DNA from: a bacterium
Lineage (GTDB): Bacteria > Patescibacteriota > Dojkabacteria > GCA-016699595
Reading direction: 5' to 3'
Assembly (NCBI GenBank): GCA_016699595.1
Contig: CP064982.1
Span: 276,563-340,562 of the forward strand
DNA length: 64,000 nt
Shown here: positions 2,309-55,428 of the stretch, one piece after another
Layout: every line of letters begins with the position of its first letter
Position numbering within the stretch: position 1 is the stretch's first letter
The notes under the pieces: model-generated
The model's database searches: none
Told to the model about the DNA's origin: nothing
What the model saw: only the letters and a program-made list of their open reading frames with translations
Program-made: the position numbers and the translations under genes

Positions 2309-4267
2309 GTGCTTTTATTTGATGAATTGAAAAAAACATTGTTGAAGCTAGAGTTTACAAAAGTGGAGAATGTATCAGATTATGCTGAATTTGAAGTAAA
2401 GGGTGATATTATAAAATTTTGGCCAAAGTTAACGGAACTTCCGTATGTAGTTTCATTTTTTGATCAAGAACTTGAATTTTGCAAAGTTATAGATGTCAAC
2501 GATGAATCTGATGACATACTTAAGCAAAAGTATCTTGAACTCCAACAAAGTAAATCTGCATTTGAACAGTTTACGAAATTGCATTCAAAAGATGCAATCT
2601 CTGCAGCGATCAATAAATTTGAGAACTGGATTGATTTTATAGTTTATTTACAACTACAAGTTGAACCTGGAGACTACTTGGTTCATGAAGATAATGGCGT
2701 GGCTGAGTATATAGGAATTACAATGAAGAGAAGTGAATTTTACTTTGAATTGAAGTATGCAGCTGAGGATAAGTTATTTGTTCATTATTCTCAAATACAT
2801 AGACTCACAAGATATTTTGGACCAGAAGGTATAAAACCTAAAGTCACGAAATTATCTGGTGGTGAGTGGAAAAGAATATTGAAAAAAGTCAAGGAAGATA
2901 CTGCGAAGTTTGCGAAGGAGCTTGTCCTTCAAGATGCACTGAGAAGCCTAACTGATGCACCAAACATTTTGACTACAACAGAATTATATACAGAGTTTTG
3001 TGACGATTTCCCATATTCTTTAACTTATGATCAGGAAAAGTCTATTCAAGACATTGAAGAAGATTTACATTCACAAAAATCTATGAATAGACTTTTAGTT
3101 GGAGATGTTGGTTTTGGGAAAACGGAAGTAGCTATGAGAGCTGCTTTTCAAGTTGTTGAATCAGGTTTTCAAATTGCAATGCTTTGTCCAACAACAATTT
3201 TAGCTGCTCAACACTACAAACTATTTTATGATCGCTTCAAAAAGTTTGGCATAAAAGTATCGATGATTTCTTCATTTCATTCTGTTAAAGAAAATTTTGA
3301 TAATATTCAAAACCTCGGAAATGGCAAAGTTGAAATAGTAATTGGCACTCACAGGCTTTTGTCAAATGATGTAAAGTTCAAAAATTTAGGATTATTGATT
3401 GTAGATGAAGAGCAAAAGTTTGGAGTTAGACAAAAAGAAAAACTAAAGTCACTAAGGTTTGGAGTTCATATTTTGTCTATGAGTGCAACTCCAATTCCTA
3501 GAACACTATCCCTAGCTTTGTCAAAGATACAAGATATTTCAATTATCTCAACACCTCCTTTAGGTAGAAAGGATATAAAGACACTTTTGTATGAACTTGA
3601 TTGGAATATCGTGAAATATGCAATAGAATTCGAATTGAAAAGAAAAGGACAACTATACTTTGTTCATAATGATATCAAAACTATATTTACGATCAAACAT
3701 AAGTTAGAAAAATTAGTACCCAAATTAAGAATAGCAGTAGCTTTTTCGGAAAACAATGTATTGCACGAGAAAGTCAATTTGAATTTAGAACAAACTATGG
3801 AAGATTTCTATAATTATAAATATGATATTTTACTTTGTTCTACTATAATTGAAAATGGGATAGATATGCCAAATGTAAATACTATCATTATCAACAATGC
3901 TCAAAACTTTGGGCTGTCTCAGCTACATCAGCTTAGAGGAAGAGTCGGAAGATCGGAAAGTCAAGCATATTGCTATCTCTTTTATAAACAAAAGCCTGAC
4001 TATAGGCAAGTTATAAAATTTCCAACGACCAAGCACCGTAAATTTAAATTTAAAAAAGATGAGGAGAATTATACAAAGCGATTAGAAGTATTAGTTGGGT
4101 CATCTTCTCTCAACTCAGGATTTATAATTGCAAGTAGAGATCTAGAGATTAGAGGGGCAGGAAATATTTTGGGTAAAGAACAATCAGGTAATATCAATTT
4201 AATTGGTTATGGAATGTATTTGAAGCTTTTAGAAGAGGAAATAGCAAAAATGAATTCTAACAAATGA
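2309..4267 (+). CDS. mfd: Transcription-repair coupling factor Mfd, short form (652 aa). Has the RNAP-interaction domain and the translocase core but lacks the N-terminal UvrB-homology module and the C-terminal D7 domain.
   Basis: 'GDVGFGKTEVAMRAAF' (motif I, essentially identical to E. coli Mfd), 'LLIVDEEQKFGV' (motif II), 'SATPIPRTL', the TRG region 'TIIENGIDMPNVNTIIINNAQNFGLSQLHQLRGRVGRS', and an RID-like 'GDYLVHEDNGVAEYIGI'. Divergent from the SOD gene, so the N-terminal truncation is not a window artefact. Confidence 0.85.
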   Translation: MLLFDELKKTLLKLEFTKVENVSDYAEFEVKGDIIKFWPKLTELPYVVSFFDQELEFCKVIDVNDESDDILKQKYLELQQSKSAFEQFTKLHSKDAISAAINKFENWIDFIVYLQLQVEPGDYLVHEDNGVAEYIGITMKRSEFYFELKYAAEDKLFVHYSQIHRLTRYFGPEGIKPKVTKLSGGEWKRILKKVKEDTAKFAKELVLQDALRSLTDAPNILTTTELYTEFCDDFPYSLTYDQEKSIQDIEEDLHSQKSMNRLLVGDVGFGKTEVAMRAAFQVVESGFQIAMLCPTTILAAQHYKLFYDRFKKFGIKVSMISSFHSVKENFDNIQNLGNGKVEIVIGTHRLLSNDVKFKNLGLLIVDEEQKFGVRQKEKLKSLRFGVHILSMSATPIPRTLSLALSKIQDISIISTPPLGRKDIKTLLYELDWNIVKYAIEFELKRKGQLYFVHNDIKTIFTIKHKLEKLVPKLRIAVAFSENNVLHEKVNLNLEQTMEDFYNYKYDILLCSTIIENGIDMPNVNTIIINNAQNFGLSQLHQLRGRVGRSESQAYCYLFYKQKPDYRQVIKFPTTKHRKFKFKKDEENYTKRLEVLVGSSSLNSGFIIASRDLEIRGAGNILGKEQSGNINLIGYGMYLKLLEEEIAKMNSNK

Positions 4268-44324: not shown

Positions 44325-46265
44325 TCAATTTCTCAATGCAGCTAAAAATGCTTCTTTGGGAACTTCTACTGATCCAAAAGTTTTTAACCTTTCTTTTCCT
44401 TTTTTCTGAGCTTGAAGAAGTTTTTTCTTTCTTTCTACATGACCTCCACTCATACCAGCCAAAACATCTTTTCTATATTGCGGTATAGTTTCACGAGCTA
44501 CTATCTTCATCCCTATCGCAGCTTGAATCGGGATCGGAAATTGTTGTCTAGGTATAAGATCCTTCAATTTTTCAACCAATCTTCTTCCTCTTGCATCTGC
44601 AGAAGTCCTATGAGACAAAAATGACAAAGGTTCTGAAGCTTCATGATTTACCAAAATATCTACTTTCACAATATCAGAAACTCTGAATTCAAAAAAATTG
44701 TAATCCATCGAAGCATATCCTTGAGATACGGATTTCAATCTATCAAAAAAATCTGTAATGATTTCATTACTAGGAACTTCATACTTGACTTGAACATACT
44801 TTTTTGAACCTGTTGTAGAAAGATATTCAGTTGATTTATATTCAGCTCTCTTTTCCGAACATAGTTGCATAATAGGTCCTATGTATTCCTCTGGAGTAAT
44901 TATTTCCAATTTAGAATAAGGTTCCAGTACTTGATCAATATATGCAATGTCAGGAAACTTTGTAACTGATTTCAAGATATAGTAACCATTATCGTCAAAA
45001 TCATCTGTAGTGCCCAATCCTTTTAGCATTTGGACTGACTTTTGAATTACATTTTCTATATTTTCATCATAATTTATATTTTTCAATTTTATCTTATATT
45101 CAACACTTGGAACAGTTGTAATCAAATTTAGGTTAAATTCACGCTCCAATCTTTCTTGAGTTATCTCCATATGAAGCAAACCTAAATAACCACAAAGAAA
45201 ACCTGATCCAAGTGCAGGAGAAGTTATTTTTTGATAATTTAGTGCTGCATCATTCATAGCAAGCTTCTCCAAACTTTCAGAAAAAGTCAAAAACTCATCT
45301 GCATCAACTGGGAACAAAGATGCAAAAACCATTGACTTTGCAGGTTGATATCCAGGTAATTTTAATTTTGATTCTTCTGTTGAATTTTGAGTAGCAAGTG
45401 ACTTATTTGTATCTGCATAACTATATGATGTGACAGTATCTCCAGTATGGATTTTCTTCAAATCTTTCAAACCGGTTGCTATATATCCAACTTCACCATT
45501 TCTCAATTCACTTGATGCAAAAAAACTCGGAGTTATATAGCCAATTTCAATTGGTGTAACTTCAGTATCAGTTCCAAGAAATTTGACCTTGTCATTTTTT
45601 TGAATTTTTCCTGAAAATATCCTAACTAAAGCAATTGCACCTTTGTGTTCATGAAAAAAAGAGTCAAAAACCAAAGCACGAAAAACTTCATTATTTCGAT
45701 TACTTTCAATTACATTTTTCTTGCTCGGACTTGGGATTCTTTCTATAATTTGATCCAAAATTTCAGTTACACCAGCTCCCGTTTTTCCTGAACAACACAA
45801 AATTTCATCTCGAGAAAATCCTAAAGTATGAACTATCTCATCTTTTGTTTCTTCAACTTGAGCTGATGGAAGATCAATTTTATTTATAACAGGAATTATT
45901 TTCAAATCTTGCTCCATAGCAGCATAAAAGACTGACAAAGTTTGAGCTTGTATTCCTTGAGTTGCATCAACTAAAAGTAAACATCCTTCACAAGCAGCAA
46001 GTGAGCGACTTACCTCATAGCTAAAGTCAACATGACCCGGAGTATCTATCAGGTTCAAAACATGATTTTTATAATTCATTCTTGCACTTTGAAGTTTGAT
46101 AGTGATTCCGCGCTCTTGTTCAAGTTCCAAAGTATCCAAAACTCGCTCTTTATCTTTCATTTCGCGTTCAGTAACTGAACCTGTTATCTCAAGAATTCTG
46201 TCAGCTAAAGTTGATTTTCCGTGATCAATATGTGCAATTATGCAAAAATTTCGAATTTGGTCCAT
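44325..46265 (-). CDS. lepA: Elongation factor 4 (LepA).
   Basis: 'IRNFCIIAHIDHGKSTLADRILE', 'DTPGHVDF', and the LepA-specific C-terminal domain. Confidence 0.95.
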   Translation of the reverse strand: MDQIRNFCIIAHIDHGKSTLADRILEITGSVTEREMKDKERVLDTLELEQERGITIKLQSARMNYKNHVLNLIDTPGHVDFSYEVSRSLAACEGCLLLVDATQGIQAQTLSVFYAAMEQDLKIIPVINKIDLPSAQVEETKDEIVHTLGFSRDEILCCSGKTGAGVTEILDQIIERIPSPSKKNVIESNRNNEVFRALVFDSFFHEHKGAIALVRIFSGKIQKNDKVKFLGTDTEVTPIEIGYITPSFFASSELRNGEVGYIATGLKDLKKIHTGDTVTSYSYADTNKSLATQNSTEESKLKLPGYQPAKSMVFASLFPVDADEFLTFSESLEKLAMNDAALNYQKITSPALGSGFLCGYLGLLHMEITQERLEREFNLNLITTVPSVEYKIKLKNINYDENIENVIQKSVQMLKGLGTTDDFDDNGYYILKSVTKFPDIAYIDQVLEPYSKLEIITPEEYIGPIMQLCSEKRAEYKSTEYLSTTGSKKYVQVKYEVPSNEIITDFFDRLKSVSQGYASMDYNFFEFRVSDIVKVDILVNHEASEPLSFLSHRTSADARGRRLVEKLKDLIPRQQFPIPIQAAIGMKIVARETIPQYRKDVLAGMSGGHVERKKKLLQAQKKGKERLKTFGSVEVPKEAFLAALRN

Positions 46266-47052: not shown

Positions 47053-48465
47053 TTAAAGATAGGGTTGTATCTCTTCCACACTCACTCTTTCCTGCTTCAT
47101 ACTATCACGATATCTTACGGTTACCGTTCCATCTTTCAAAGTATCATAATCAATAGTTATACAAACTGGAGTTCCAATTTCGTCTTGCCTTCTATATCTT
47201 TTGCCAATTGAGCCTGACTCATCATACTCAACTATTCCTTGATAAGTATTGTACAAAATTTCCTTGCATTTTTTATATACTTCTTTAGCTTTCAAGCTTA
47301 ACTCTTCTTTTTTCATCAAAGGTAAAACTGCAACTTTGACAGGTGCAAGTCTTTTGTCTAACTTTAGCACTAATCTAGTTTCTCCATTTTCCAAATTTTC
47401 CTCAGTATATGCACTATCCAAAAACATCAGAAATTGTCTAGCAACTCCAGTTGAAGTTTCCATGATATGCGGAACAAATCTTTCTTCAGTTATTTGATCA
47501 AAATAATCCAGTTTCACTCCAGAAAACTTGGAATGTTGCGACAAATCCCAATCTCCTCTTGCATGAATTCCTTCAATTTCTTTGAAACTATCTTTCATAC
47601 ATTTAAATTTGTACTCAATATCATAAGCATCACTTGCATAATGTGCTAGTTTTTCATGTTTGTACCAATGCAGTCTATCTTCAGCAATCCCATATTCTTT
47701 AAACCAATTCCATCTAACTTGTTTCCAGTCTTCATATAATTCTTTAGTATCTTTTGGATTATGAAAATATTGCATTTCCATTTGTTCAAATTCACGAGTT
47801 CGAAATATAAACTGCCTTGCGACTATTTCATTTCGAAATGCTTTTCCAATTTGTGCAATTCCAAATGGTAATTTCATAGATTGTGAAGTCAAAACATTTT
47901 TGTACTCAAGATAAATTCCACCACAAGTTTCAGGTCTCATATAAACCACATTTTCTTCTGATAATGTATCAGTTGGCGAGCCTAAGTTTGTTTTGACCAT
48001 CAAACTAAATACTTTCGCTTCAGTAAAATCTTTGTTTCCGCAATTTGCACATTTCAACTTTCCTTCTGATTTTAATTTATCTAATTCAGCGTTGATAAAT
48101 TCTAAAGGTTGTTTGTCTGCAGAAACTCCAAATTCTTCAAGTATATGATCAGCTCGATATCTAGCTTTGCAAGTTTTACAGTCAATTTGAGGATCATTAA
48201 ATCCATCTACATGCCCTGAAGCTTTCCAAGTTATAGGATGCATGAAAATTCCAGAATCAAGTGCAACAATATCTTCTCTATCTTGGATCATGCTTTTCAT
48301 CCAAGCATTTTTGATATTATTGGCAAATAAATATCCATAATGACCATAATCATAAACAGCAGCAAAACCTCCATAAATTTCAGAACTTGGAAAGACAAAT
48401 GCATTTTGTTTGCAAAATGATGCAATGGATTCTAGATTAAGTTGTTTGTTATTATTTATAGTCAT
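47053..48465 (-). CDS. glyQS: Glycine--tRNA ligase (dimeric GlyQS type). True start is most likely the ATG at 48465 (MTINNNKQ…). The tabulated TTG at 48492 lies inside the leader terminator stem.
   Basis: 'FVFPSSEIYGGFAAVYDYGHYG' and overall class II GlyRS architecture. The ATG at 48463-48465 follows the terminator and T-run of the T-box leader. Confidence 0.9.
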   Translation of the reverse strand: MTINNNKQLNLESIASFCKQNAFVFPSSEIYGGFAAVYDYGHYGYLFANNIKNAWMKSMIQDREDIVALDSGIFMHPITWKASGHVDGFNDPQIDCKTCKARYRADHILEEFGVSADKQPLEFINAELDKLKSEGKLKCANCGNKDFTEAKVFSLMVKTNLGSPTDTLSEENVVYMRPETCGGIYLEYKNVLTSQSMKLPFGIAQIGKAFRNEIVARQFIFRTREFEQMEMQYFHNPKDTKELYEDWKQVRWNWFKEYGIAEDRLHWYKHEKLAHYASDAYDIEYKFKCMKDSFKEIEGIHARGDWDLSQHSKFSGVKLDYFDQITEERFVPHIMETSTGVARQFLMFLDSAYTEENLENGETRLVLKLDKRLAPVKVAVLPLMKKEELSLKAKEVYKKCKEILYNTYQGIVEYDESGSIGKRYRRQDEIGTPVCITIDYDTLKDGTVTVRYRDSMKQERVSVEEIQPYL

Positions 48466-48640
48466 ATTTATAGTATAAAAAAACCTCAACAAGCAACGCT
48501 GTTGCCTGTTGAGGACGAAATAAAATATTTACTCGTGGTTCCACCTCAATTACTTCTTATATTATTGAATTGTTGAAACTCAATTTGCCAAATTGAGGTA
48601 GTTATGAAAGCAACTTATTTGCTAGCAAATTTTGTATAAA
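48466..48640 (-). promoter_or_regulatory. T-box riboswitch leader of glyQS: stem I region with a candidate GGC-A specifier, the T-box sequence, and an antiterminator/terminator pair.
   Basis: Minus-strand 'AAUUGAGGUGGAACCACG' (plus 48534-48551) matches the T-box consensus AAUUAGGGUGGNACCGCG. It can pair with the 5' arm of the terminator (CCUCAA) to form an antiterminator whose UGGA bulge would read the UCCA end of tRNA-Gly. 'UUUGGCAAA' lies upstream in the leader. Confidence 0.7.
48477..48514 (-). terminator. Intrinsic terminator of the glyQS T-box leader.
   Basis: Near-perfect hairpin 'cctcaacagGcaacagcgttgcTtgttgagg' followed on the minus strand by a U7 tract (plus 48477-48483 'aaaaaaa'). 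Confidence 0.7.
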
Positions 48641-48878
48641 CTACTGTAAACAAAACTGCACCTAAAACAGCTATCAATAAATTCAATACATTAAACGAAG
48701 TGCTGAATGATAAGTTGAGTTCTTTTGTAGTCAAAAAGGTGTATAAAGTATTTCCTACAACTGAACCTACTATACCTAATAATGAGGTCATCCAAAAGCT
48801 ATCAGATTTTCCCATTAGTTTGTTTGCTAGAAAGCCAACTAAAGCTCCAAACAATATTGCCAAAATTAAATTTAACAT
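48615..48878 (-). CDS. GlsB/YeaQ/YmgE-family membrane protein (transglycosylase-associated / stress-response family).
   Basis: 'MLNLILAILFGALVGFLANKLMGK…GIVGSVVGNTLYTFL' is the typical GxxxG-rich three-TM pattern of this family. Confidence 0.75.
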   Translation of the reverse strand: MLNLILAILFGALVGFLANKLMGKSDSFWMTSLLGIVGSVVGNTLYTFLTTKELNLSFSTSFNVLNLLIAVLGAVLFTVVYTKFASK

Positions 48879-55150: not shown

Positions 55151-55179
55151 AATACAAAATAACAAAAAATCCCGCACTT
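55151..55179 (-). terminator. Intrinsic terminator-like hairpin about 30 nt upstream of the trpS start, in its 5' leader. Candidate attenuator.
   Basis: Minus-strand 'AAAUCCCGC-caagu-GCGGGAUUU' (9-bp perfect stem) followed by 'UUUUUUG'. An upstream 'ACUUGGCG' could pair alternatively with 'CGCCAAGU' in the 5' arm. Confidence 0.5.
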
Positions 55180-55355
55180 GGCGGGATTTACATTTGACAA
55201 TATATGTAAAAGTCAACGCCAAGTAGGAATAATTTGATTATGCCATGAATTTTGTTTTCTTGATTGAAATAACATTGCTTTATAATATTACAGATTATAG
55301 CATCTACTTTGATTTAGTAGAATGATTTTCCGTTCAATGTTATAATTTGCGATTC

Positions 55356-55428
55356 GCGAAAGTAATTCAGTTGGTAGAATGCTTCCTTCCCAAGGAAGAT
55401 GTCGCGGGTTCGAATCCCGTCTTTCGCT
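55356..55428 (+). tRNA. tRNA-Gly (anticodon CCC), 73 nt, CCA not encoded.
   Basis: Cloverleaf by eye: acceptor GCGAAAG/CTTTCGC with discriminator U, D-arm ATTC-AGTTGGTA-GAAT, anticodon arm CTTCC-TTCCCAA-GGAAG (anticodon CCC), T-arm GCGGG-TTCGAAT-CCCGT. Confidence 0.85.

Follow-up and report, generated by a model that had tools for sequence, protein, structure and literature searches.

Evidence for a drastically reduced T-box in the glyS leader of a probable Candidate Phyla Radiation bacterium

T-boxes are the textbook case of a structured RNA that reads another RNA. To our knowledge, gene regulation is almost unexplored in bacteria of the Candidate Phyla Radiation (CPR), whose amino-acid supply depends on a host cell. 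The glyS locus described here, part of a 64-kb stretch of contig CP064982.1 (positions 276,563 to 340,562; hereafter the window), raises the question of whether a leader RNA can be a T-box if it keeps only two base-pairing sites, a specifier and a UGGN bulge, together with a terminator switch. Judging from the sequence and its relatives, we consider it probable that this leader, an extremely reduced element of ~120 nt (48597–48477), derives from a T-box and controls glyS, the gene for glycyl-tRNA synthetase (GlyRS), by sensing uncharged tRNA-Gly and attenuating transcription. The elements of the leader, glyS and the gene upstream of it all lie on the minus strand of the window.

As an original prediction for this locus had claimed, the leader carries a near-consensus T-box sequence, AAUUGAGGUGGAACCACG (48551–48534), whose 12-nt core, GGTGGNACCRCG, occurs only once in the window and in none of 100 dinucleotide-preserving shuffles. 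The complete T-box signature of helix A1, a 7-nt bulge of the form UGGN-ACC and helix A2 can be read from 48551 to 48509 (AAUUGAGG-UGGAACC-ACGAG...UUCGU-CCUCAA). Both the local Rfam alignment and folding pair UUGAGG (48549–48544) with CCUCAA (48514–48509) as A1, and ACGAG (48536–48532) with UUCGU (48519–48515) as A2. Together with the intervening bulge UGGAACC (48543–48537), of which UGGA occupies 48543–48540, they form an antiterminator of −7.7 kcal/mol (48549–48509, UUGAGG-UGGAACC-ACGAG...UUCGUCCUCAA). The competing structure is an intrinsic terminator (48514–48477), composed of a 14-bp hairpin, CCUCAACAGGCAAC-AGC-GUUGCUUGUUGAGG (48514–48484; ~−21 kcal/mol, z = −6.6 against shuffles), and a U7 tract (48483–48477). 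The strand CCUCAA is common to both structures, rendering them mutually exclusive, and the energy asymmetry between the weaker antiterminator and the stronger terminator is that expected for a T-box. Folding thus bears out the predicted pair of alternative structures, with U7 ahead of an ATG.

The specifier lies in a 19-nt hairpin with a 6-bp stem, CUCAAU-UUGGCAA-AUUGAG (48597–48579), which presents the glycine codon GGC (48589–48587) in a 7-nt loop (48591–48585), with UU before it and AA after it. GGC-A (48589–48586), previously proposed as a candidate specifier, combines a codon for the amino acid of the regulated gene with the trailing purine of T-box specifiers, and GGC holds the sole GG dinucleotide between the upstream stop codon (48617–48615) and the T-box sequence. 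In composition its loop, Y-U-GGC-A-A, matches an anticodon loop, with Y32 and U33 ahead of three bases and A37 and A38 behind them. The proposed specifier is supported by this placement in a terminal loop and, as detailed below, by covariation of the hairpin and by a glycine codon in all related leaders.

The comparison rests on glyS loci (numbered L0xx) taken from GTDB species-representative contigs or retrieved through protein homologues. L087, L085, L086, L089 and L090 were obtained by protein-based retrieval, and L004 (Nealsonbacteria), L010 (Moraniibacteriota) and L013 via the species set. Seen just upstream of glyS, the leader had appeared not to be conserved in the closest relatives, a view overturned by a scan of whole loci: L081 (92% GlyRS identity) and L082 (82%) carry the same element one gene further upstream. 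Alignment of whole leaders with MAFFT misaligned the specifier hairpin, and the modules were therefore aligned separately, the hairpins in alignment A2 and the antiterminators in alignment A5. A covariance model, R1, built from the nine relatives' antiterminators in A5 with the window left out, detects a single significant site in the window (48551–48507; 44.1 bits, E = 1.9e-9). Across 92 glyS loci (622 kb), its matches comprise ten CPR leaders only, with none in Bacteroidota, Spirochaetota or the other loci. The structure of A5 is 96.7% paired, helix A1 shows compensatory changes at five of its six pairs, and all ten related leaders stand ahead of glyS or of a short operon with glyS as its last gene. 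Counting the window, the UGGA bulge is present in 11 of 11 leaders, and each of them closes with a hairpin that is built on the 3' strands of A2 and A1 and has 5–9 consecutive U behind it, indicating that all are transcription attenuators. The terminator hairpins range from −18 to −31 kcal/mol in the nine leaders folded correctly by script; those of L004 and L010 were read by eye.

The specifier hairpins, which were picked by eye, can be aligned in four AT-rich leaders, namely the window, L082 (AAUCAU-UUGGCAA-AUGAUU), L081 (CAUAA-CUGGCAA-UUAUG) and L087 (UAACCG-UUGGAA-UGGUUA). In this alignment all six stem pairs show compensatory changes and 95.8% of the cells are paired; none of 500 shuffles attains the observed covariation, and slid registers drop to 17–42% paired. 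Every one of the 11 leaders, when its 5' part is folded to minimum energy, places a glycine codon in a terminal loop; nine have GGC and two have GGA. The chance of this in shuffles is 2.2% for the window alone, and the product over the 11 leaders, some of which are related, is 7e-13. The base 5' of the codon is U throughout, and the next base out is U in 8 of 11. In the GC-richer leaders (L010, L085, L086, L090, L004) a short helix is closed by the loop (A)GAUUGGC(N), an architecture that appears to correspond to the 'ultrashort Stem I'. For L010, the Rfam T-box model places its K-turn positions at the base of this helix.

The most interesting point, absent from the original prediction, is the lack of the Stem I platform, Stem II and Stem III. 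At its gathering score of 93 bits, the Rfam T-box model RF00230 has no match in the window, nor in 20 CPR loci. In E-value mode it yields a local match of 22.2 bits that covers model positions 183–216, that is, the antiterminator only, and Rfam aligns nothing upstream of position 183 to the long Stem I, Stem II, the IIA/B pseudoknot or Stem III. The relatives score 20–33 bits or have no match at all. Neither Rfam nor folding recovers a K-turn, an internal specifier loop (S-turn, AGUA/GAA) or an elbow platform of AG bulge and distal loop, and only 17 nt lie between the upstream stop codon and the hairpin. The 29-nt linker between hairpin and antiterminator (48578–48550) is A/U-rich (15 A, 9 U), has a minimum free energy (MFE) of 0.0 and hides no Stem III, K-turn or Stem II, even when hairpin and antiterminator are enforced during folding. 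It ends in the purine string AGAAG (48557–48553), U, and AA (48551–48550), the purines that normally flank Stem III; the canonical motif of the discriminator domain is RRRxG-Stem III-AA (PMC7583486). Among the ten related leaders, eight possess a Stem III (L082, L085, L086, L089, L090, L004, L010, L013), and L081 and L087 are without one. The base pair of A2 (48536 with 48515) is A-U in the window and in L081 and G-C in L087, not the usual G.U, which is found in the other seven aligned relatives. The prediction had named the lack of a significant match to RF00230, or of a stable stem I presenting GGC in a specifier loop, as grounds for refutation. Taken literally, the former is what we obtained; of the latter, the placement of GGC in a loop stood, if in the terminal loop of a 19-nt hairpin, and a canonical Stem I with an internal specifier loop did not. 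Because the comparative evidence from the leaders supports a T-box, however, we regard both yardsticks as too strict for this variant.

Among the closest known systems are the glycyl transcriptional T-boxes (glyQS of B. subtilis and G. kaustophilus, glyS of S. aureus; RF00230): they share with the window element the glycyl-tRNA synthetase gene and the attenuation output, the UGGAACC bulge for U73-CCA, A1 and A2, a terminator built on the 3' strand of A1/A2, and the specifier GGC-A. As in the characterised glycyl T-boxes, Stem II and the IIA/B pseudoknot are absent (PMC11404447). Unlike them, the window element has no long Stem I with a K-turn, an AGUA/GAA S-turn loop and an AG bulge/distal loop docking on the tRNA elbow, and no Stem III helix, only the purines AGAAG..AA; A2 has A-U at its base in place of G.U, and the codon is preceded by UU, whereas GAA is canonical (PMC11404447). 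It measures ~120 nt, as compared to the 219 positions of the model, and scores 22 bits where the threshold is 93.

The translational ileS T-boxes of Actinobacteria, TBDB class II, have an ultrashort Stem I (PMC7583486, summarising Sherwood et al. 2015), which is a trait of translational T-boxes (PMC7583486). Like the window hairpin, they have a short Stem I with the specifier in its terminal loop and lack an elbow platform, and it is the GC-richer CPR leaders that come closest to them. They retain, however, Stem II, the IIA/B pseudoknot and Stem III and sequester the Shine-Dalgarno sequence, whereas the CPR leaders have no Stem II apparatus and end, without exception, in a terminator and U-run. 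In the window we found no sequestrator that would occlude the ribosome-binding site: U7 follows the hairpin, which contains no purine-rich Shine-Dalgarno sequence. The platform is considered dispensable in translational and essential in transcriptional T-boxes (PMC7583486), and the CPR element crosses this line. It surely descends from a glycyl transcriptional T-box, and by comparative sequence evidence it is a real but drastically reduced T-box. A further parallel is provided by complexes between tRNAs with complementary anticodons, in which two preorganised 7-nt loops with at least three G-C-rich pairs attain far more affinity than a trinucleotide duplex. As in such kissing complexes, the 'anticodon' of the loop Y-U-GGC-A-A complements that of tRNA-Gly(GCC); unlike in them, one partner is the hairpin of an mRNA leader that serves gene control, and pairing to A37/A38 would be hypothetical.

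From structure and comparison, the following mechanism can be envisaged. The nascent leader forms the small hairpin, whose loop UUGGCAA presents GGC much as an anticodon loop does, and the anticodon loop of tRNA-Gly(GCC) could kiss it. The invariant U, usually UU, 5' of GGC could pair with A37/A38, extending the codon-anticodon helix from 3 bp to 4–5 bp, and this extended loop-loop helix might compensate for the missing elbow-docking platform. Past the 29-nt unstructured linker, the UGGA bulge would pair with the free U73-C-C-A end. By analogy with the T-box family, uncharged tRNA would stabilise the weak antiterminator over the terminator and allow readthrough into glyS; with charged tRNA, or none, the terminator would form and transcription would stop at U7, 11 nt before the ATG. 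As a tentative proposal, which we find possible though short of probable, these leaders would represent a functional, protein-independent minimal T-box class in the CPR, consisting of an anticodon-stem-loop mimic and a bare antiterminator, without Stem III in the window, L081 and L087, and with the elbow contact replaced by a loop-loop helix of 4–7 bp.

Several observations weigh against a functional tRNA sensor. The RF00230 score of 22.2 bits falls short of the gathering score of 93, and the element does without K-turn, S-turn specifier loop, AG-bulge/distal-loop platform, Stem II and Stem III. Transcriptional T-boxes generally need a long Stem I with an elbow-binding motif; a truncated Stem I without Stem II hardly binds tRNA; and Stem III is held to be indispensable, with the antiterminator alone showing no appreciable tRNA binding (PMC7583486). 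The G.U pair at the base of A2, proposed to be the main steric sensor of the aminoacyl group (PMC7583486), is replaced by A-U in the window and L081. The specifier hairpin has little stability, with −3.8 kcal/mol for 6 bp and −5.5 kcal/mol for 8 bp, and the predicted cognate, tRNA-Gly(GCC), is not encoded in the 64-kb window, out of a genome of 762 kb. The distribution is patchy: of ~25 CPR species representatives only 3 were found to carry the element, and the 74%-identical relative L083/L084 lacks it. Over 20 kb of the region, moreover, terminator-like hairpins are not enriched (8 found, 6.8 expected), and there is thus no independent support for widespread intrinsic termination in the host organism. 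By the requirements laid down in the review (PMC7583486), the window element should not work; yet both of its tRNA-contacting sites are conserved amid the compensated drift of its helices.

A further adverse point is particular to the window. The strand CUACCUCAAUU (48601–48591) can form 11 bp with AAUUGAGGUGG (48551–48541), the 5' half of the T-box sequence including UGG. This duplex dominates the MFE structure of the whole leader and can sequester the 5' arm of the hairpin and the UGG of the bulge, destroying the specifier hairpin. Its energy is −15.1 kcal/mol in the window, as against −1 to −7 kcal/mol for the ten other leaders, and it was therefore discarded as a conserved anti-antiterminator. 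The competitor helix may be an accident of the sequence similarity between Stem I and A1; alternatively, it may be a lineage-specific anti-antiterminator that is blocked by early tRNA binding.

How, then, is the leader to be understood if it does not sense tRNA at all? It could be a decaying relic, its hairpin and U7 serving as a leaky terminator that works constitutively, ending the transcript of the upstream 87-aa gene and permitting a fixed, low readthrough into glyS. In favour of this, Stem III and the Stem I platform, which are held to be indispensable (PMC7583486), are gone, and A-U stands in place of the G.U sensor pair; the window shows no terminator belonging to the upstream gene itself, the T-box sequence can be captured by the strong competitor helix, and some close relatives (L083/L084) have lost the element altogether. 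We nevertheless consider this unlikely. Lineages with 72–92% GlyRS identity keep the loop YUGG(C/A)A(A) and the bulge UGGAACC while the stems have diverged with compensation, which indicates purifying selection on exactly the two sites that contact tRNA, and a plain terminator requires neither of them. In L081, in addition, the upstream gene is self-terminated and the leader forms a separate unit with its own promoter-like site.

Alternatively, tRNA might be sensed with the help of a protein or another factor, which would replace the Stem I platform and Stem III in the place of an extended loop-loop helix. An isolated short Stem I and isolated antiterminators are poor at tRNA binding, and even a canonical thrS T-box needed a protein fraction in vitro (PMC7583486). 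The A-rich linker tract AUUCAAUAAUAnAAGAAGUAA, conserved in the window and L081, could bind such a factor, but its conservation may just reflect the closeness of the two. No candidate protein is linked to the element either: between leader and glyS, L081 and L082 each carry a different, unrelated gene, and the window has neither of them. Overall, a cofactor-dependent T-box seems quite improbable to us. That an ordinary terminator happens to lie beside a T-box-like string is effectively refuted by the covariation, R1 and the relatives. Rfam does not call the element at its curated threshold, and many weak hairpins arise in AT-rich sequence; against this stand the absence of the 12-nt core from all shuffles, the E-value of a model built without the window, an adjoining aminoacyl-tRNA synthetase gene that matches both codon and discriminator base, and the recurrence of the same arrangement, with covariation, in ten other CPR glyS leaders.

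Our literature searches returned no paper on T-boxes together with CPR, Patescibacteria, Parcubacteria or Saccharibacteria. TBDB was assembled with RF00230 and with a class II model for Actinobacteria only, and would miss these CPR leaders. Since the class is invisible to the standard Rfam/TBDB pipeline with its threshold of 93 bits, T-box censuses are biased against reduced forms. The present leaders appear to extend T-box-type regulation to the Candidate Phyla Radiation. If the window element works, it would define the true minimal requirements for tRNA sensing, and would offer a system of ~90 nt for structural and single-molecule work as well as a compact part for synthetic biology. If the proposed minimal class is true, these would be the smallest natural tRNA-sensing riboswitches known; the requirement for a Stem I platform and Stem III in transcriptional T-boxes would be overturned, and the leaders would provide a natural picture of a primitive, or fully streamlined, T-box core.

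The regulated gene, glyS (47053–48465), encodes a single-chain (alpha2-type) glycine--tRNA ligase of 470 aa with the Pfam domains tRNA-synt_2b and HGTP_anticodon. The original prediction had placed its start at the ATG 48465 and taken the tabulated TTG at 48492 for an error. The ATG is indeed the true start: the product is identical to QQR93840.1 (470 aa, beginning MTINNNKQ), and its closest homologues align from this position. The error does not extend to the public record, in which QQR93840.1 already starts there; TTG 48492, within the 3' arm of the terminator, is merely the start of the longest open reading frame (ORF) and appears in the longest-ORF table only. The leader between the upstream stop codon TAA (48617–48615) and the ATG measures 149 nt. 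The ATG follows 11 nt downstream of the U-run, a gap too short for a promoter, implying that glyS expression must traverse the terminator.

Upstream lies the gene of an 87-aa membrane protein (Transgly_assoc; 48615–48878), whose stop codon is located 17 nt ahead of the specifier hairpin. No terminator of its own was found for it in the window, and by sequence it contains a promoter-like site (48734–48707). Transcription into the leader thus probably originates from this gene, either by co-transcription or from the internal site. In L081, the homologue of the upstream gene ends in its own terminator, and a promoter-like TTGAAA-16-TAAAAT, recognised by eye, directly precedes the hairpin. Elsewhere in the window, a hairpin with a U-run on the minus strand (55167–55189), AAAUCCCGCCAAGUGCGGGAUUU, has about the same sequence as the terminator AAAAUCCCGCUAAGUUGCGGGAUUUUU that follows the 85-aa gene of L081.

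The window has a G+C content of 31%. The best matches of its GlyRS among GTDB species representatives are all metagenome-assembled genomes of CPR bacteria (Patescibacteria) at 64–69% identity, belonging to UBA5272, Nomura-, Uhr-, Nealson-, Kuenen- and Saccharibacteria. For LepA (44325–46265), those of the best 120 matches that carry an organism name are nearly all Candidatus Dojkabacteria, at 53–58% identity, the other named ones being labelled just 'bacterium'. These two markers place the ultrasmall host in the CPR, probably near Dojkabacteria, lending support to the CPR-type host that had been suspected earlier. The sole tRNA gene in the window, on the plus strand, is that of a tRNA-Gly(CCC) (55356–55428) with the anticodon loop UUCCCAA, a discriminator U and no encoded CCA. 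The claimed match between the UGGA bulge and a UCCA end of tRNA-Gly is thus in keeping with the discriminator of this tRNA, although the predicted cognate is the GCC and not the CCC isoacceptor. At all seven positions the loop UUGGCAA is complementary to an anticodon loop UUGCCAA, with a duplex energy of −7.8 kcal/mol as compared to −2.5 kcal/mol for the CCC loop. The presence of a CCC isoacceptor suggests that the tRNA-Gly set of this genome is not minimal; no tRNA-Gly genes were found in the 32 related loci that were scanned.

Some of the related loci have features of their own. In L081, a protein of 251 aa without Pfam match (646–1401) is encoded between leader and glyS, and in L082 one of 292 aa with weak guanylate-kinase/P-loop similarity (2110–2988). 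By their position between leader and glyS, both genes would fall under tRNA-Gly control. They were considered as a conserved partner of the element and rejected, being mutually unrelated and without homologue in the window. In L085, a long, near-perfect inverted repeat (1655–1800) separates the genes for tRNA-guanine transglycosylase and peptidase U32, for which Rfam returns only a spurious plant microRNA precursor. The otherwise AT-rich contig of L087 carries a GC-rich structured element of ~175 nt (1081–1255) between the T-box terminator and the glyS start, with a 12-bp closing helix (GCGACUCCCCCU/AGGGGGAGUCGU) and an MFE of −80.6 kcal/mol (z = −5.0); apart from a weak match to PK-repZ, it belongs to no Rfam family. 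In L090, and in the same region of L091, ~520 nt extend from the T-box terminator to glyS (2480–3000) and contain an ORF of 105 aa on the opposite strand (2618–2935). In the Moraniibacteriota T-box of L010, finally, helix A2 has an insertion of ~40 nt (2828–2870), recalling the stem Sa insertion of staphylococcal glyS T-boxes.

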